IMG/VR virus record: IMGVR_UViG_2877285697_000002
Span: 1-5,260 of that record
From: a virus
Lineage: Duplodnaviria; Heunggongvirae; Uroviricota; Caudoviricetes
Length of the DNA stretch: 5,260 nt
Strand: one strand, 5' to 3'
A program made the translations under genes and the position numbers. The notes below the pieces were generated by a model. The model did not search any database. It was given only the letters and a program-made list of their open reading frames with translations, and was not told where the DNA came from. Position 1 is the first letter of the stretch. Each line of letters starts with the position of its first letter. Below are positions 1 through 5,260 of the stretch, piece after piece.

Positions 1-210
1 AACCGTCCTCCGTATCCTGTCATACGCGTAAAACAGCCAGCGCTGACGTGATTTAGCACCGACGTAGCCCCACTGTTCGTCCATTTCAGCGCAGACAATC
101 ACATCACTGCCCGGTTGTATGCGCGAGGTTACCGACTGCGGCCTGAGTTTTTTAAGTGACGTAAAACCGTGTTGAGGCCAACGCCCATAATGCGTGCACT
201 GGCGCGACAT
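1..210 (-). CDS. insB: IS1 InsB (transposase catalytic part), 5' portion only; runs off the window edge. Normally expressed as InsAB' by a -1 frameshift.
   Basis: Minus-strand frame starting at the ATG at 210 translates [64 protein letters not shown]..., matching IS1 InsB. Overlaps the insA 3' end with the A6C slippery motif. Confidence 0.85.
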
Positions 211-404
211 CCGACGCCATTCATGGCCATATCAATGATTTTCTGGTGCGTACCGGGCTGAGAGGCGGTGTAAGTGAACTGTAGTTGCCATGTTTTACGG
301 CAATGAGAGCAGAGATAGCGCTGATGTCCGGCAGTGCTTTTGCCGTTACGCACCACGCCTTCAGTAGCGGAGCAGGAAGGACATCTGATGGAAATGGAAG
401 CCAC
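129..404 (-). CDS. insA: IS1 InsA (transposition regulator, N-terminal part of the InsAB' transposase)
   Basis: 91-aa translation [43 protein letters not shown]... is near-identical to IS1 InsA as I remember it, with a few substitutions (iso-IS1 variant). Includes the zinc-finger-like CPSC...CSHC motif. Confidence 0.92.
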
Positions 405-459
405 GCAAGCACCTTAAAATCACCATCATACACTAAATCAGTAAGTTGGCAGCATTACC

Positions 460-912
460 TGATTCGATATCCTTTTTCCTGGCTTCAAGTTTTTGTTGCA
501 ATGCGCAGATTTCATGAAACCTTTTTGTTATTTCGTGTTCTGCGCTAAACATGCATTTATCTCTGGTCGGAGTAGGGAGCAATATATCTTCGCCGTTGCC
601 GTCTTTCCCATATGAATACCATCCAACCCTTCTGCCAGATACAGTCAGATAAATTGAAGTAGAACGAATATCGCATGAGTAAAATGAACATCCCATCTTT
701 TCAAGTTCTTCACTTATAGCTACCAACTTGGATGATAACTGATCCACTTCCTCAGTTTTCTTCTTCCCGCCAAACGCAACAACTCTGGCGTCAAGTGCAA
801 GCTGGTTCTTTAGCTTTGTTACTTCTTCAAGTTCAGTGAACACCCCGGACTTAATTAAAGCGTTGCGTGCTATTACTTCTTTTATTCTCGTTGTTAAGCG
901 GATTGATGACAT
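460..912 (-). pseudogene. Hypothetical prophage early-left operon protein, apparently interrupted at its 3' end by IS1. The open frame continues 8 codons into the IS1 inverted repeat before stopping at 433.
   Basis: ORF-track frame 433..927; the likely true start is the ATG at 912 (MSSIRLTTRIKEV...), preceded by GAGAGG 6 nt upstream. The reading frame crosses the IS1 boundary at 459/460. No family recognised; the sequence is charged and looks coiled-coil-like. Confidence 0.5.
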
Positions 913-973
913 ATTAATTCCTCTCAAATAAGTGGTTTGCTACCTAATTTCATTTTCTGGCGACCAACACAAG

Positions 974-1357
974 TCATCTTGCTGTCAGCTGTTTTGATTT
1001 CCGGTAGCCTGCCGCGTAAATGGCTACGTTTGGAAGACATACACCAGTTTCTGGTTGCTTATGTCCAAACTCATTCGCGTACACAATGGCCGCTCGCTCC
1101 AGATTGCGTCTGTATTCTTTCTGTTGCCAGATCACGTCCTGTGCCATGAACTTAATTGGCTTAGCGTCTTCTATGCGCTCAGGCGTTTCGTGAGTACCTT
1201 TAGCCTGAATCTGCGCTCTGCTTAGAGTAGGGCGGTGTAATACTTCTGAACTTATTGCTTCTTCGCGGGCCAGCACGCCGTTAGCTAATGCCTTTGCCTT
1301 TAAACGCTCACGACGACGAGAACGTGAATTGCCTTTGAACTGAGTTCTGCGTGTCAT
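974..1357 (-). CDS. N: N-like transcription antitermination protein (P22 gene 24 / lambda N family)
   Basis: N-terminal arginine-rich motif (GNSRSRRRERLKAKALANG) and C-terminus ...VAIYAAGYRKSKQLTAR resemble P22 gp24 (...VALYAAGHRKSKQITAR, from memory). Strong SD AGGAGG 4-5 nt upstream of the ATG at 1357. Sits downstream of a boxB hairpin and to the left of the repressor gene, as in lambda and P22. Confidence 0.75.
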   Translation of the reverse strand: MTRRTQFKGNSRSRRRERLKAKALANGVLAREEAISSEVLHRPTLSRAQIQAKGTHETPERIEDAKPIKFMAQDVIWQQKEYRRNLERAAIVYANEFGHKQPETGVCLPNVAIYAAGYRKSKQLTAR

Positions 1358-1599: not shown

Positions 1600-1710
1600 G
1601 GCTTAAAGATAATCTAGGTTATAGTGGTGGTCAATAACTTAATTTATGGATTCTGATAAATAAGTTATAAGTGATGGATAATAAAGGTATTTTATTTTTG
1701 TAAATGTTGC
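1600..1710 (-). promoter_or_regulatory. Putative OL/PL early-left promoter and operator region
   Basis: Candidate leftward promoter: -35 TTGACC (complement of 1629-1634), 17-bp spacer, -10 TATCTT (complement of 1606-1611). Shares motifs with the cI-cro intergenic region: GGTTAT-N11-ATAACTT at 1617-1640 versus 4016-4039; GTTATAAGTGATGG at 1664-1677 versus GTTATAAGTAATGG at 4052-4065; ATAATAAAGGT at 1680-1690 versus 4010-4020. Promoter hexamers assigned by eye only. Confidence 0.4.
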
Positions 1711-1853: not shown

Positions 1854-1988
1854 TCAGCAGCTCGGATAAGAGCGGAAGTGCTGACGAACATGTTCGAGCT
1901 CACCGAAACGTATGCGGCAGTAACTGCGCACATAAACCGGCTTGTCGTGTTCGTAGATGAAGTCATCGCGATTAACATCGTGAGCCAT
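1854..1988 (-). CDS. Possible small protein (44 aa), hypothetical
   Basis: Minus-strand ORF ATG(1988)...TGA(1854-1856) encoding MAHDVNRDDFIYEHDKPVYVRSYCRIRFGELEHVRQHFRSYPSC, with SD AGGAGA 6 nt upstream. Ends about 20 nt before the terminator at 1818-1835. Below the ORF-track size cut-off; no homology recognised. Confidence 0.3.
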   Translation of the reverse strand: MAHDVNRDDFIYEHDKPVYVRSYCRIRFGELEHVRQHFRSYPSC

Positions 1989-2014
1989 AGCTTTTCTCCT
2001 GTTTTTGTATACAG

Positions 2015-2133
2015 CCTGTTTACCCGAACAGGTTGTAGTTTGTTGGGAGAACCGCTATCCTTGGCTTGCGGTTGCCAAGGGTGTAGCGGTAGGTAATCCT
2101 CCATACACTTCGGAAATACTGGATATATTTCCG
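2015..2133 (-). other. Cluster of three stable stem-loops in a non-coding stretch (possible structured RNA or leader)
   Basis: Perfect inverted repeats: CCTGTT-tacccg-AACAGG (2015-2032); CCTTGGC-ttgcggtt-GCCAAGG (2059-2080); CGGAAATA-ctggata-TATTTCCG (2111-2133). None has a clear U-tract. Confidence 0.4.
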
Positions 2134-2136
2134 ACC

Positions 2137-2160
2137 CAAAAAGCCCCGTTCCCTCGGGGC
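2137..2160 (-). terminator. Rho-independent terminator immediately after the stop of the 177-aa gene
   Basis: GCCCCG (2143-2148), loop TTCCCT, CGGGGC (2155-2160). Minus-strand transcript reads GCCCCGagggaaCGGGGCTTTTTGGG. The stop codon of the upstream gene is at 2162-2164. Confidence 0.7.
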
Positions 2161-2161
2161 T

Positions 2162-2695
2162 TTATTCTTTTGTTCCGCCATCAATCATCGCAAAAGATTC
2201 CACAATCAGACTGATACGCTTGGCTTCATCTTTTGTCAGGTCGCGAGGCAGGTTGCCAATGGTGACGATAAGATCTCCGCGCAATGGAATCGGCAGTTCA
2301 AATGTTTTTACACCAACCTGTACGTCAGTTACCGCCTTCTTCTTAGGTGCCATCTTTTTACGCTCCTTTTTTTTATTTACATCACCAACTGACACATTAA
2401 TCTCACCATTCTGGTAGGAGATAAATTTATCAATAGCACTTTGCATCCGGCTTTTGTATGCCTGCAAAGATGATTCAGAGGGTTTGCTTTCTGCTGAGTC
2501 TGCGTACGAACTTGCTAAGTTGGCAACGCTATAATCACGGATATCGGCATCGGTGAAATCCGACCCAAGAACAGTAAGAAGGCGCAGGGAAGAGTCACGG
2601 AGATTGCGGGCTGTAGCATCATTGACGATACCAAGCTCAGGAAGCATCTGTAAGAAGTCCTGAAATGCTTTGATGGTGTAGCTTTTGGTTTGCAT
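2162..2695 (-). CDS. Hypothetical protein, 177 aa, unknown function; accessory (moron-like) gene in the rexAB-equivalent position
   Basis: Uninterrupted ORF with its own terminator. Contains a lysine-rich linker (KKKERKKMAPKKK) between two predicted domains. No family recognised from memory. The start codon at 2695 is immediately preceded by a hairpin and T-tract, with the only SD-like GAGG inside the hairpin arm. An alternative internal start (Met17, near 2647) cannot be excluded. Confidence 0.65.
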   Translation of the reverse strand: MQTKSYTIKAFQDFLQMLPELGIVNDATARNLRDSSLRLLTVLGSDFTDADIRDYSVANLASSYADSAESKPSESSLQAYKSRMQSAIDKFISYQNGEINVSVGDVNKKKERKKMAPKKKAVTDVQVGVKTFELPIPLRGDLIVTIGNLPRDLTKDEAKRISLIVESFAMIDGGTKE

Positions 2696-2722
2696 AAAAA
2701 AGCCTCATACAGTTGATGAGGC
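2696..2722 (-). terminator. Hairpin plus U6 tract directly abutting the ATG of the 177-aa gene; candidate terminator/attenuator that sequesters the SD
   Basis: Minus strand reads GCCTCAT-caactgt-ATGAGGC-TTTTTT-ATG. The 7-bp stem 2702-2722 contains GAGG 7 nt upstream of the start codon. Confidence 0.5.
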
Positions 2723-2884
2723 AATACTAATTTGATCGTCAAAACAAATCAAGACCCAAGAAACAATCGTTGATTCCTTTCTTTGTGACAATACAGTCAA
2801 ATCAAGTTTTACAAGGATTACTTTTCTTCGATTACATTAAAGGCCGCACTTCTGCGACCATCCATCACCAAAATGTCTCTTCAC

Positions 2885-3226
2885 TCATCCGAAGAAGCAG
2901 CAATCCGGGTCAGCACGCACAAGCTCAAGCGCATCAGTCAGCGAAAGTTCAGTACTGTACTGATGCCATTTCATATCCTTCCGCATCCAATAGATTTTCC
3001 ATCTATCCAGAGAACGTATGTACTTGATTCTTGCTGATGGCAGGATGTTTGTTTCACCTGGGTTGCCCTGCCACACGGGGCGCTGTTCGCCGATATCTAT
3101 CGTTTGGTCATTGATGCTATAAACAATATCCAGTTCATTGCGGATATGTTCAGGCGGCCTTATGCTTTCAATGAATTGGTGAACTTCTTTTTTGACCGCT
3201 TGATATTCAAGGTCAGTGAACGCCAT
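2885..3226 (-). CDS. DUF3024-like small protein (113 aa), unknown function; immediately downstream of the repressor gene and probably co-transcribed with it
   Basis: Translation contains ...RPPEHIRNELDIVY...WKIYWMRKDMKWHQY...CCFFG, which resembles the conserved core of DUF3024 family proteins as I recall them (RPP.H.R..L...Y, W.LYWMRRDLKWH.Y, terminal FFG). SD GAGGAGG 4 nt upstream of the ATG at 3226. Only 37 bp from the repressor stop codon. Confidence 0.75.
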   Translation of the reverse strand: MAFTDLEYQAVKKEVHQFIESIRPPEHIRNELDIVYSINDQTIDIGEQRPVWQGNPGETNILPSARIKYIRSLDRWKIYWMRKDMKWHQYSTELSLTDALELVRADPDCCFFG

Positions 3227-3263
3227 CTATCCTCCTCACCCAAACGTTTCTTCAGGCCACTGG

Positions 3264-3971
3264 TTACCAGCTATGCGATGACCAGAATACTCTGCCAATA
3301 ATCCTTACGGTTTTATGAAATTCATCTCTATCCATTACTTCATCCGGGTACTCTTCGCGATTTATTGATCTGATTATCACCGATGTAGGAGTGGCGATTA
3401 ATGTTTTTACTCGCAACAAATCAGACTGGCAAATAGCGTAGGTTTTACCATCTCTGATGGTGGTATCTTGTGTGTTAACACCAACAACATCGCCATCGTG
3501 AAGAGTTGGTTCCATGCTTTGACCTGTTACCCTTACCAGCTTGGCAGAACTTTCAGTTACCCCCATCTTTTTCAGATAGTACTTTCTGAAAACCAAAGAG
3601 AACTCTGATGATTCTTCTATCTCGCAGCTACCGCTTCCAGCCGAAAACGAAACGTTAAGAAGAGGCAATGCGACAAACTCGTCATCGTTTTTTTTAATGT
3701 CTTCCCATACCACAGCTTTTAAAGATGACTCACGGATATTGGATGGTTCTTCATGTGTACCATCCCTCATTTCACCAATACCAGAACTAAGCCATTCAGG
3801 GCGTACTTTTAAAGCATTAGCTAACTCAACCATCTTGCGAGATCCGTTTGTTTTACCGGATGACATCTTCTGTATGGCTGGCTGAGATATTCCAACCATG
3901 TCCGCAAGCTGTGATTGCGACACCCCTGCCGATCTCATGGCTGCATTTAGTCTTTCTGCGAATGTTTTCAT
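3264..3971 (-). CDS. cI: CI-like prophage repressor: N-terminal XRE-type HTH plus C-terminal S24 (LexA-like) autopeptidase domain
   Basis: HTH: QSQLADMVGISQPAIQKMSSGK. S24 signature GQSMEPTL (catalytic Ser) with a downstream LRVKTL (catalytic Lys). Candidate Ala-Gly cleavage site in FSAGSG. Divergent from a cro-like gene across an operator region. The start is placed at ATG 3971 (MKTFAERL...); the ORF-track TTG at 4001 has no SD and is judged less likely. Confidence 0.85.
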   Translation of the reverse strand: MKTFAERLNAAMRSAGVSQSQLADMVGISQPAIQKMSSGKTNGSRKMVELANALKVRPEWLSSGIGEMRDGTHEEPSNIRESSLKAVVWEDIKKNDDEFVALPLLNVSFSAGSGSCEIEESSEFSLVFRKYYLKKMGVTESSAKLVRVTGQSMEPTLHDGDVVGVNTQDTTIRDGKTYAICQSDLLRVKTLIATPTSVIIRSINREEYPDEVMDRDEFHKTVRIIGRVFWSSHSW

Positions 3972-4082
3972 ATCCACAAATCTATAACTACGGTTATCCA
4001 AAGTAAAATAATAAAGGTTATTGCTATTTTTTATAACTTGGGTTATCCTTGGTTATAAGTAATGGCTGAAAGAGGTATGCTC
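3972..4082. promoter_or_regulatory. OR-like divergent promoter/operator region (PRM leftward, PR rightward) with repeated GGTTAT/ATAAC half-sites
   Basis: Half-sites: ATAAC-n4-GTTATCC at 3984-4000 and 4033-4049; GGTTAT-N11-ATAAC at 4016-4037; GGTTATAAGTAATGG at 4051-4065. Candidate PR: -35 TTGCTA (4021-4026), 17-bp spacer, -10 TATCCT (4044-4049). Exact promoter elements not resolved. Confidence 0.6.
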
Positions 4083-4307
4083 ATGAATTTAGTAATTCAA
4101 CGAGCCTTGAAGATTGTCGGTAGTCAAAAGCGGCTTGCCGACAAGTGTGGTGTAACGCAGCCAGCAGTACACAAATGGCGGAAAGGCGGGCAGGTTTCTC
4201 CAGAGAAAGTTACCGCCATCGTTAACGCCACTGGAGGGCAGATCAAGGCTTACGAAATTCGCCCAGATTTACCACACCTGTTTCCAAAACCGAATCAGGC
4301 AGCATAA
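4083..4307 (+). CDS. cro: Cro-like small HTH regulator (Cro/YdaS-type)
   Basis: 74 aa from ATG 4083 with SD AGAGG (4071-4075) 7 nt upstream. HTH-like QKRLADKCGVTQPAVHKWRKGG. Divergent from the repressor gene; small size and position are typical of Cro. Confidence 0.8.
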   Translation: MNLVIQRALKIVGSQKRLADKCGVTQPAVHKWRKGGQVSPEKVTAIVNATGGQIKAYEIRPDLPHLFPKPNQAA

Positions 4308-4445: not shown

Positions 4446-4745
4446 ATGGAACAAACAAGTTACAGCAAACTATCACAGCGCGATGTTGATCGCGCAGAAA
4501 CAGATTTACTCATCAACCTGTCAACGCTTACCCAGCGCGGTCTGGCAAAGATGATTGGCTGTCATGAATCGAAGATAAGCAGAACGGACTGGAGATTTAT
4601 TGCTTCGGTCTTGTGTGCTTTCGGAATGGCATCAGACATCAGTCCGATTAGCAGGGCTTTTAAGTATGCGCTTGATGGACTCACCAATAAAAAACGCCCG
4701 GTGTGCAAGACCGAGCGTTCTGATCAAATACAAATGGAATTCTGA
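4446..4745 (+). CDS. cII: CII-like transcriptional activator (lambda CII family)
   Basis: C-terminus ...LTNKKRPVCKTERSDQIQMEF closely matches lambda CII ...LTNKKRPAATERSEQIQMEF (from memory). HTH region KMIGCHESKISRTDW aligns with lambda AVGVDKSQISRWKRDW. Position right of cro matches. Confidence 0.88.
   Translation: MEQTSYSKLSQRDVDRAETDLLINLSTLTQRGLAKMIGCHESKISRTDWRFIASVLCAFGMASDISPISRAFKYALDGLTNKKRPVCKTERSDQIQMEF
4455..4468 (-). promoter_or_regulatory. Candidate CII-binding site / PRE -35 region (TTGC-N6-TTGT on the minus strand)
   Basis: Complement of 4455-4468 reads TTGCtgtaacTTGT, one mismatch from the TTGC-N6-TTGC CII recognition repeat. Lies in the 5' end of cII and is oriented leftward, as in lambda PRE. 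Confidence 0.35.
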
Positions 4746-4777: not shown

Positions 4778-5260
4778 ATGACATACGAAAATGACAAATT
4801 CCAGGTTCTGAAGAGCATGAAGGTGCCAGATGATTTTAAATCAAATGGCTTTGTTTATGTGCTTTCGAATGAGTGCATGCCAGGAATTTATAAGATTGGG
4901 ATGACTAAGCATTCACCAGAAGTTAGGGCTAAAGAAATTTCAGCCTCTACTGGCGTTCCTAAGCCATTTAAGGTGATAGCAGCCTTTCATTCAAATAATC
5001 CCGCATCAGATGAAAAACTCATTCATAAAGCCTTTGCAAAAGAGAGGCTTAGTGATAATCGAGAGTTTTTCAAGCTTGAAGATAATGATCTTTCTGAATC
5101 TCTAAATGAAATAAGGGCGCTGGTTGGCCCTGAAAGAAATGGCGAGACGGCAGAATACGCAATTTACGACTCATTCATTTCTTTTCGCCATGAAAATGAG
5201 CTTGATCTTAATGAGGAGCTTATAGAGCAAGGTCTGGGTAGTGTAGTTGGTCTGAGGTAG
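4778..5260 (+). CDS. T5orf172 / GIY-YIG-like domain protein (160 aa); putative nuclease-fold accessory protein
   Basis: N-terminal region GFVYVLSNECMPGIYKIGMTKHSPEVRAKEIS...FKVIAAFH...REFFK fits the T5orf172 (MUG113) / GIY-YIG pattern as I recall it (YVL.N...KIG.T...R..E...H..FF). SD AGGAG 6 nt upstream of the ATG at 4778. Stop codon TAG at 5258-5260. Confidence 0.7.
   Translation: MTYENDKFQVLKSMKVPDDFKSNGFVYVLSNECMPGIYKIGMTKHSPEVRAKEISASTGVPKPFKVIAAFHSNNPASDEKLIHKAFAKERLSDNREFFKLEDNDLSESLNEIRALVGPERNGETAEYAIYDSFISFRHENELDLNEELIEQGLGSVVGLR

Follow-up and report, generated by a model that had tools for sequence, protein, structure and literature searches.

The window analysed here, the whole stretch of 5,260 nt, represents the early-control region of an E. 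coli prophage of the lambdoid, Stx-phage-like type, and contains its immunity switch. We consider it very probable that this switch follows the lambda/434 plan, with dimers of both CI and Cro recognising a 14-bp dyad, ATAAC-N4-GTTAT. The system is an ordinary lambdoid CI/Cro switch, and shows every feature of the lambda/434 kind that can be tested in a sequence. Our analysis established the operator sites with their spacing and conservation, the covariation of these sites with the recognition helices of the two proteins, and a consensus-level PL promoter.

The open reading frame listing and Pfam scans revealed a lambdoid layout of N, cI (HTH plus S24), cro and cII, with the following genes:

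129-404, minus strand: insA of an IS1 element (ORF listing, Pfam)
433-915, minus strand: Nmad5-family gene (ORF listing, Pfam)
974-1357, minus strand: N antiterminator (ORF listing, Pfam)
1854-3226, minus strand: three small cargo genes, including a DUF3024 gene (ORF listing, Pfam)
3264-3971, minus strand: cI repressor gene, 235 aa (Pfam Peptidase_S24, 3.7e-18, and HTH_3)
4083-4307, plus strand: cro, a Cro-type HTH gene, 74 aa (Pfam YdaS_toxin, P22_Cro and HTH_3; PHROG 35)
4446-4745, plus strand: cII (ORF listing, Pfam)
4778-5260, plus strand: T5orf172 gene (ORF listing, Pfam)

The cI and cro genes are divergent and about 100 bp apart (intergenic region 3972-4082), flanked by N on the left and cII on the right. 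CI carries an N-terminal HTH with the recognition helix SQPAIQKM (residues 29-36) and a C-terminal S24 peptidase domain in which Ala-Gly occupies 111-112, the GQSM serine motif lies at 150 and RVK at 187. The recognition helix of Cro is TQPAVHKW (residues 25-32); cro has the Shine-Dalgarno sequence AGAGGT at 4071-4076, and its PHROG 35 match is annotated as a transcriptional repressor. A scan of the entire window against Rfam, with E values up to 1 allowed, returned zero matches, and the prophage sRNA families AgvB/AsxR and Pas were set aside because the literature maps them to the late region. A hairpin at 1815-1838, read from the sequence, was not called by the terminator scan. The IS1 element at the left end and a mismatch unique to OL1 of this prophage suggest that it may be decayed.

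An earlier note on this DNA had described GTTAT/ATAAC half-sites between cI and cro, arranged as ATAAC-n4-GTTATCC and GGTTAT-n11-ATAAC. All of the listed motifs are present where the note had placed them: six exact 5-mers lie in 3984-4056, ATAAC-n4-GTTATCC occurs at 3984-3999 and 4033-4048, and GGTTAT-n11-ATAAC at 4016-4037 and 1617-1638. The interpretation given in the note is sound in substance but parses the motifs wrongly. The repeating unit is the 14-bp dyad ATAAC-N4-GTTAT; the CC that trails the first arrangement is outside the operator (at OR1 it belongs to the -10 hexamer of PR), and a further site, OR2 at 4008-4021, had been missed. With up to one mismatch allowed, the dyad has five matches in the window against 0.11 expected, a count that 0 of 200 shuffles reached, and all five fall in two control regions, as OR3, OR2 and OR1 between cI and cro and as OL1 and OL2 beside PL.

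For comparison, 86 loci encoding CI relatives were fetched, together with phage and genome records found by DNA similarity; in this combined set, 79 loci form the group with ATAAC half-sites. A weight matrix built from the relatives, in which positions 1-5 and 10-14 carry much information and positions 6-9 little, gives the five sites 13.3-20.6 bits. No other position in the window exceeds 5.6 bits, and the top score per shuffled window averages 6.2 bits. Perfect dyads number 274 in the 79 loci (621 kb), all at OL or OR; the lone dyad flagged as lying elsewhere is OL1 of one locus (L013), whose partner has two mismatches. The motif is kept in 79 of 79 loci, and its absence from prophages carrying the same repressor was the observation set beforehand as refuting the operator claim. 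Among 23 unique OR sequences, invariant columns make up 27 of 30 in the half-sites, 2 of 12 in the N4 centres and 11 of 50 elsewhere.

These data bear directly on the idea that A+T-rich intergenic DNA yielded the repeats by chance. The bare 5-mer GTTAT/ATAAC indeed shows no enrichment across the window as a whole (13 copies against 10.3 expected), and the signal therefore lies in clustering and fixed spacing: nine of the 13 exact 5-mers are in the two control regions, six in 3984-4056 and three in 1618-1668. Clustering and spacing far exceed expectation, the sites are conserved across divergent relatives while N4 and flanks vary, and they covary with the recognition helices of two proteins. 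The chance explanation is already refuted, and we give it practically no probability.

The covariation is seen in distant relatives, which keep the architecture and change the half-site, with the recognition helices of both CI and Cro changing along with it. Four specificity classes were distinguished:

half-site ATAAC: CI helix SQPAIQKM, Cro helix (T/S)QPAVHKW
half-site ACAAC: CI helix SQAAIQKI, Cro helix (S/T)QQAVYKW
half-site ATAGC: CI helix AQPSVWKL, Cro helix KQPSVWAW
half-site ATCGC: CI helix AQSS(I/V)N(R/K)L, Cro helix AQSTICDW

In HK639 and two further loci (L007 and L088), the CI N-terminal domain and the operators are the same but the C-terminal domain is unrelated, so that the sites track the DNA-binding domain. 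The support for the dyads as shared targets of CI and Cro is as strong as evidence from sequence allows, and upholds the earlier proposal that operators common to OL and OR mark CI/Cro immunity control and set the immunity specificity of this prophage. Bases 1 (A) and 5 (C) of the half-site are invariant in all four classes. In 434 repressor, Gln28 contacts operator base 1; the aligned Gln is invariant in every CI and Cro compared, and the residue that aligns with 434 Gln33 is Lys or Arg in each CI. Contacts from Gln to base 1 and from Lys/Arg to base 5 would be consistent with this pattern throughout the family.

The right operator region comprises three sites and two divergent predicted promoters:

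3984-3997: OR3, ATAACtacgGTTAT, perfect dyad, 18.6 bits; overlaps the predicted PRM -10 hexamer and spacer
4008-4021: OR2, ATAATaaagGTTAT, one mismatch (ATAAT), 13.3 bits
4033-4046: OR1, ATAACttggGTTAT, perfect dyad, 20.6 bits, the best in the window; conserved
3979-4007, minus strand: predicted PRM, with -35 TTTACT (4007-4002), 17-bp spacer and -10 TAGATT (3984-3979)
4021-4049, plus strand: predicted PR, with -35 TTGCTA (4021-4026), 17-bp spacer and -10 TATCCT (4044-4049)

The distances between the centres of neighbouring sites are 24 and 25 bp here and 25 bp from OL1 to OL2, as in lambda-type operator arrays. OR2 lies immediately next to the PRM -35 hexamer, and its last T doubles as a base of the PR -35 hexamer, while OR1 overlaps the PR spacer and the first three bases of the PR -10 hexamer. 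In most relatives the OR2 position reads ATAACaaagGTTAT. A candidate fourth OR site at 4043-4056 was rejected, as it scores at background (5.3 bits), overlaps OR1 by 4 bp and is not conserved.

Both promoters, and the starts we assign to them, are predictions from hexamer matches and conservation. Each matches 8 of 12 sigma-70 consensus positions, and neither was called by the promoter scan. The PR hexamers keep the same register and position in all relatives, one of which (L078) has TAGACA-17-TATAAT there. An alternative -10 hexamer, TATAAG, lies at 4054-4059, and the annotators of HK639 placed pR elsewhere than the PR predicted here. For PRM, the arrangement TTTACT-17-TA(N)ATT at 6-7 nt from the ATG is found in nearly all unique variants among the 79 loci. 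Only 7 nt separate the predicted PRM -10 hexamer from the cI ATG (3971), implying a leaderless cI mRNA.

OR3 is conserved in all relatives, with the N4 variants tacg, cacg, cgtg, cgaa, cgag and ttct. A CG is present in the centre of OR3 in seven of eight variants and never in the centres of OR1, OR2, OL1 or OL2. In phage 434, repressor and Cro contact the outer 4-5 bp of each half, and the non-contacted centre tunes affinity; by this analogy, OR3 could be a weak site.

The left operator region, between N and the cargo genes, contains the following features:

1606-1634, minus strand: PL, with -35 TTGACC (1634-1629), 17-bp spacer and -10 TATCTT (1611-1606)
1609-1622: OL1, ATAATctagGTTAT on the plus strand and ATAACctagATTAT in the direction of PL, 17.3 bits; overlaps the PL -10 hexamer
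1634-1647: OL2, ATAACttaaTTTAT, 18.0 bits; one base in common with the PL -35 hexamer
1655-1668: candidate weak OL3, GATAAataaGTTAT, right half perfect and left half degenerate; 21 bp to the right of OL2
1678-1691: candidate weak OL4, ATAATaaagGTATT, followed by a conserved T-tract, TTATTTTTG, to 1700

The earlier note had predicted a PL beside the OL motifs, and the promoter scan calls one there on the minus strand. This PL matches 9 of 12 consensus positions, is conserved, reads toward N (1357-974) and coincides in location with the 'putative pL' annotated in HK639. The mismatch in OL1 of the window is a C-to-T change absent from the other 78 loci; the TTTAT half of OL2 is a deviation kept across relatives. 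OL1 and OL2 lie 25 bp apart, start to start, in nearly all relatives, and the spacing of the pair is kept though its distance to cI ranges from 172 to 1824 bp and the cargo is unrelated.

The second arrangement described earlier, GGTTAT-n11-ATAAC, could instead be taken as the binding unit, a wider inverted repeat of about 22 bp directly duplicated at OL and OR. It is itself an inverted repeat and occurs exactly twice, once per control region, against 0.01 expected in the window. However, parsing the arrays in this way leaves orphan half-sites at both ends (3984, 4042, 1609 and 1643) and OR3 without a partner. The neighbouring gap in OR is 10 bp and the gaps in OL are 11, 7 and 9 bp, so that gaps between sites vary (10, 11, 7 and 9 bp) while each of the 274 perfect sites has exactly four bases between its halves. 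The -35 hexamers lie within the 11-bp gap, pointing opposite ways at OL and OR, which explains the conserved length of this gap, and 434-type domains bind 14-bp dyads. GGTTAT-n11-ATAAC is the gap between O2 and O1, consisting of the right half of one site, the -35 hexamer and the left half of the next, and is not an operator arrangement; we regard the wider unit as very improbable.

The earlier claim that the operators are duplicated at OL holds for the dyads, which recur as OL1 and OL2; the orientation is that of a mirror image, not of a direct copy. At OR, the plus strand reads GTTAT-TGCTA, giving the -35 hexamer TTGCTA, and at OL the minus strand reads GTTAT-TGACC, giving TTGACC. Along transcription, the last T of O2 falls in the -35 hexamer, the 17-bp spacer contains most of O1, and the -10 hexamers (TATCCT at PR, TATCTT at PL) begin with the TAT of the GTTAT of O1. 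Since the promoter elements align when each region is read along transcription, OL is the mirror image of OR, as expected for the divergent promoters PL and PR. A direct duplication of OR at OL was considered and rejected: the asymmetric promoter hexamers align only in the inverted orientation, and direct alignment yields a 27-bp block alone.

That block contains a further sequence, GTTATAAGTRATGG, which the earlier note had counted among the shared operator elements. It is present at 4052-4065 and 1664-1677, two matches against 0.01 expected in the window. The OR copy forms part of the following feature:

4051-4065, plus strand: GGTTATAAGTAATGG block after OR1, with an orphan GTTAT half-site and the -10-like hexamer TATAAG (4054-4059)

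The 27-bp direct repeat (4052-4078 and 1664-1690) is identical at 22 of 27 positions, with a score of 29 compared to a mean of 18.7 and a maximum of 28 in 300 shuffles. This repeat and the orphan GTTAT at 4052-4056 lie outside what the lambda/434-plan model explains.

The sequence to the right of OL2 accounts for the OL copy. The whole OL-distal element (1655-1700) is conserved in all relatives. Exactly 21 bp to the right of OL2, where the window has its degenerate OL3, a one-mismatch site, ATCACataaGTTAT, is found in HK639 and L008 and in L088, and the sister groups L083, L084 and L086 have a third OL site at +20 or +21 (up to one or two mismatches). In the window itself, OL3 is outside the top 25 matrix scores. 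The left half-site of OL4, ATAAC, is invariant across relatives, though in the window the position scores -2 bits; the good half at this position follows the specificity class, being ATATC in L083, ATTGC in L084 and GCGAT (the right half) in L086. Start to start, OL2 lies 25 bp beyond OL1, OL3 a further 21 bp on and OL4 another 23 bp on. On this positional evidence, GTTATAAGTRATGG at OL is the right half of the weak OL3 plus the spacer between OL3 and OL4, and not an operator of its own. The OR copy is restricted to the lineages of the window and SH2026Stx1; L061, L088, L007 and HK639 have the same operators yet lack the block. It may be a relic of an exchange between OL and OR, or it may supply the alternative -10 hexamer TATAAG.

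A broader version of this idea takes both GTTATAAGTRATGG blocks as promoter elements or a recombination relic, with a TATAAG -10 hexamer fused to a GTTAT half-site; the OR block would serve an alternative or second PR start and the OL block a rightward cargo promoter. The score of the 27-bp repeat, just above the shuffled maximum, fits this reading, as does the fact that the other three switch promoters likewise start their -10 hexamers inside a GTTAT half-site. Furthermore, genuine rightward genes (phrog_3946 and phrog_3975) come immediately to the right of the OL-distal element in PA28 and HK639, and the promoter scan gives a plus-strand promoter-like match at 1653-1682. One such match is, however, the level expected by chance (1.1 in the region), TATAAG does not end in the T that is conserved in -10 hexamers and has a poor -35 partner, and the window has no rightward gene after OL. 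The OR copy is missing from the four relatives named above, and the distal half-sites change with repressor specificity, unlike a pure promoter element. Taken together, we judge this broader reading unlikely.

Alternatively, the OL-distal sequence (1664-1700) could be a host-factor site, for example an IHF site plus A/T tract stimulating PL, as in lambda, where an IHF site lies upstream of PL. The reverse complement of 1668-1680, TATCCATCACTTA, is one mismatch from the IHF core consensus, WATCAANNNNTTR, with an A/T-rich tract on its 5' side, and the T-tract TTTATTTT is invariant across relatives of every specificity group. The core match is nonetheless a weak one (1-2 mismatches). In L083, L084 and L086 the GTTAT and ATAAC words of the element are replaced by group-specific half-sites, and in L088, HK639, L084 and L086 full OL3 sites occupy its position. 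The two roles can coexist, and a host-factor site in place of the weak operators seems to us somewhat less likely still than promoter elements or a relic. Weak OL3 and OL4 sites are the reading that we prefer for the distal element. Sister groups also have an operator-like site over the cro ribosome-binding site, and it is conceivable, though we hold the view only tentatively, that this 434-like repressor family uses operator arrays longer than the textbook three plus three.

The switch mechanism that we propose is the standard one. Dimers of CI and of Cro would bind ATAAC-N4-GTTAT through a 434-type helix-turn-helix. OR1 covers the PR spacer and -10 hexamer, and CI at O1 and O2 would block PR and PL; at OR2, abutting the PRM -35 hexamer, CI would repress PR and be well placed to activate PRM. 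With OR3 over the PRM -10 hexamer, high levels of CI, or Cro, would shut off cI. OL1 over the PL -10 hexamer and OL2 at the -35 hexamer would repress N and the leftward genes, with the putative weak sites OL3 and OL4 distal to PL. RecA-stimulated self-cleavage of CI by its S24 domain, at Ala111-Gly112, would lead to prophage induction. Binding, the order of affinities, cooperativity and PRM activation are predicted from the arrangement of the sites and from the related systems.

Comparison with related prophages, which the earlier note had proposed as the route to an immunity group, places this prophage with SH2026Stx1, PA28 and related Stx1a phages, and HK639. The assignment predicts which superinfecting phages would be excluded and which co-resident prophages would share the repressor, the latter being relevant to Stx-phage induction in multi-prophage strains. 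Classical mosaic boundaries delimit the immunity module: homology to the heteroimmune phage 86 breaks off at 1600 and starts again at 4295, and this homology takes in the DUF3024 cargo gene (2841-3281) as well. The N and nutL region of the window is 99% identical to the Stx2 phage 86 type. The best complete-genome match is 99.6% identical, and the cI-cro type of the window was found in 163 of 5426 complete E. coli genomes.

In terms of mechanism, the switch offers nothing new beyond the lambda/434 paradigm, and only an OL array with four positions and, in the relatives, a series of co-evolving specificity classes are mildly unusual. If operator arrays in this family are indeed longer, they would allow the role of weak distal sites in long-range OL-OR looping to be tested, and the four classes, in which CI, Cro and sites change together, would form a ready series for the HTH recognition code. 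A literature search found no footprint, EMSA or cross-immunity data for this repressor or its close relatives, and an exact-string search for the 14-mers returned nothing relevant. The same 14-mers of PA28 are listed as putative operators, by computational prediction, in Table S5 of Yin et al. 2015 (PMC4587872). In that table the sites between cI and cro are called OL and those on the N side OR, opposite to where they lie in the genome. The present analysis gives exact coordinates for sites and promoters, and corrects the swapped labels of this sole published prediction.

Among known phages, the closest is SH2026Stx1, with 95% DNA identity over cI-cro and 96% identity in CI, followed by PA28 and a set of Stx1a phages of O157:H7 (80% DNA, 84% CI) and by HK639 (71% DNA, about 45% CI overall). 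All phage records above 60% CI identity are of the SH2026Stx1 and PA28 types, and none falls between 40 and 60%. SH2026Stx1, PA28 and HK639 share the CI helix SQPAIQKM, the Cro recognition helix and ATAAC-N4-GTTAT sites at the same spacings as the window. The window differs from all three in the mismatches in OL1 and OR2 (ATAAT) and in the cargo between cI and OL; HK639 differs further in its CI C-terminal domain and in using put-RNA antitermination instead of N.

The Stx phages 933W, BAA2326 and H-19B have the same lambdoid layout as the window, and each was rejected as a member of its immunity group. The operator of 933W is 15 bp long with a different consensus, so that length and sequence both differ (PMC3317979); like the window, 933W carries three sites at OR and just two at OL (PMC8065619). 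BAA2326, whose operator sites are weakly symmetric (PMC5977221), has an unrelated CI, though its footprinted OR3, CCTTTGGTTATATGTAAT, resembles 4047-4063 of the window. The CI of H-19B is without significant similarity, and its intergenic repeats differ.

The DNA-binding side of the switch most resembles that of phage 434. The closest match of the CI N-terminal domain among solved structures is 434 repressor (E values 1e-8 to 9e-8), with 434 Cro also near (1.3e-6), and the two systems share a 14-bp dyad whose outer bases are conserved and whose centre varies, similar recognition helices in CI and Cro, and three OR sites overlapping divergent PR and PRM. The 434 operators are ACAA-N6-TTGT, with the recognition residues Gln28, Gln29 and Gln33. 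In contrast, the half-site of the window is ATAAC, not ACAA, and these residues align with Gln, Pro and Lys in its CI. Given the different half-site and the changes in two of the three key residues, the phage is predicted to be heteroimmune to 434. The sister group with ACAAC half-sites, whose Cro contains QQ, comes closer in sequence to 434.

The general plan is that of lambda. Shared features include the gene order N - PL/OL - cargo - cI - PRM/OR/PR - cro - cII, the 24- and 25-bp OR spacings, an O1 that covers the -10 hexamer and an O2 beside the PR and PL -35 hexamers while abutting that of PRM, a repressor with an S24 self-cleavage domain and a predicted leaderless cI mRNA. The lambda PRM -10 hexamer is TAGATT, identical to that predicted in the window. 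The operators of the window, however, are 14 bp and unrelated in sequence to the 17-bp operators of lambda, its CI N-terminal domain is 434-like (lambda repressor gives E = 0.75), and its OL has two strong sites plus two weak positions, whereas that of lambda has three clear sites.

Four operator positions were found at OL across the family, with OL1 followed by positions at successive steps of 25, 21 and 23 bp, start to start (OL regions of the window, 1655-1700, and of the related loci L083, L084, L086, L088 and L008). The half-sites of the distal positions vary together with the repressor specificity class in the OL regions compared, and both distal sites of the window (1655-1700) are half-degenerate. 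The T-tract TTTATTTT, which follows the distal OL sites, showed no variation in the ATAAC-group alignment and was seen again in several sister-group loci. In two phages of the same predicted operator type, small genes are encoded immediately to the right of OL:

L002 (PA28), about 3632-3853, plus strand: rightward gene phrog_3946, without annotation in the PA28 record
L111 (HK639), 197-433, plus strand: rightward gene phrog_3975, which is HK639_46

The location of these genes directly beside OL implies that PA28 and HK639 have a promoter reading rightward close to the OL-distal element. The window carries no rightward gene of the phrog_3946 or phrog_3975 type to the right of OL, just a 27-codon ORF at 1704-1787.

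The OL3-OL4 region also contains one copy (1664-1690) of a 27 bp direct repeat, the other copy of which (4052-4078) lies where the cro leader begins and takes in the Shine-Dalgarno sequence; 22 of the 27 positions are identical. The repeat is kept in the SH2026Stx1 lineage (20/27), and is not conserved in PA28, HK639 or the related locus L061. In the sister specificity groups, we observed an operator-like dyad with one to two mismatches and group-specific half-sites, the N4 of which is the cro Shine-Dalgarno sequence (significance was roughly estimated). Its offsets from the cI start are:

L080, +91
L004, +97
L083, +103
L081, +111
L084, +127
L086, +116

This dyad may represent a fourth OR operator in the sister groups; the counterpart in the window (4066-4079) is not a site.

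At OR3, a CG lies within the N4 centre (window 3989-3992) in seven of the eight variants among the relatives, and was never found in the N4 centres of OR1, OR2, OL1 or OL2 of these relatives. By analogy with 434, the CG may tune affinity via the non-contacted centre. CCTTGGTTATAAGTAAT (window 4047-4063) closely resembles OR3 of phage BAA2326, CCTTTGGTTATATGTAAT (L092 5686-5703), which has been DNase-footprinted (PMC5977221). The CI and context of BAA2326 are unrelated to those of the window, and for this reason the likeness is probably a coincidence of promoter-like sequences.

The published annotations of PA28 and HK639 were also checked. The putative PA28 operators are listed as 14-mers, OL1-3 and OR1-3, in Table S5 (PMC4587872). 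Comparison of that table with L002 (3494-3560, 4723-4785) revealed that the labels are swapped: the 14-mers called 'OL1-3' are located in the cI-cro interval and those called 'OR1-3' on the N side, where the third entry, ATAAATGACTGAT, is the OL3-OL4 spacer rather than a dyad. The 'putative pR' of the HK639 record, TTGGGT-17-AGTAAT (L111 2757-2785), is out of the family-conserved register, which in HK639 is TGGACA-17-TATCTT (L111 2739-2768). The 'putative pL' of the same record agrees with the PL assigned here.

Homology to the heteroimmune Stx2 phage 86 (92-99% identity) breaks off immediately to the left of the PL -10 hexamer, at window position 1600, and restarts at 4295, the cro end; it also includes the DUF3024 cargo gene (2841-3281). 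The immunity module is flanked by clean mosaic joints. Further features of the window are:

1815-1838: hairpin AAACCCGGC-GCGGAA-GCCGGGTTT, with TTTTCTTT after it on the minus strand, read from the sequence
129-404: IS1 insA, at the left end
4778-5260: T5orf172/MUG113 (GIY-YIG-like) gene, after cII

The hairpin was not called by the scan. It is kept in phages 86 and H-19B, both heteroimmune, and probably terminates the leftward operon of cI and the cargo genes, in the t_imm position.

Besides the insA sequence, the N gene is an annotated pseudogene in the closest complete genome, and the prophage may be decaying. The OL1 half-site at 1609-1613 is ATAAT in the window and ATAAC in the other 78 loci, save one with ATGAC; the change in the window could weaken PL repression. 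In lambdoid phages, cII is usually followed by the replication gene O. Among the relatives, SH2026Stx1 and PA28, for example, carry O-like genes at this position; the window has the T5orf172/MUG113 gene in that place.
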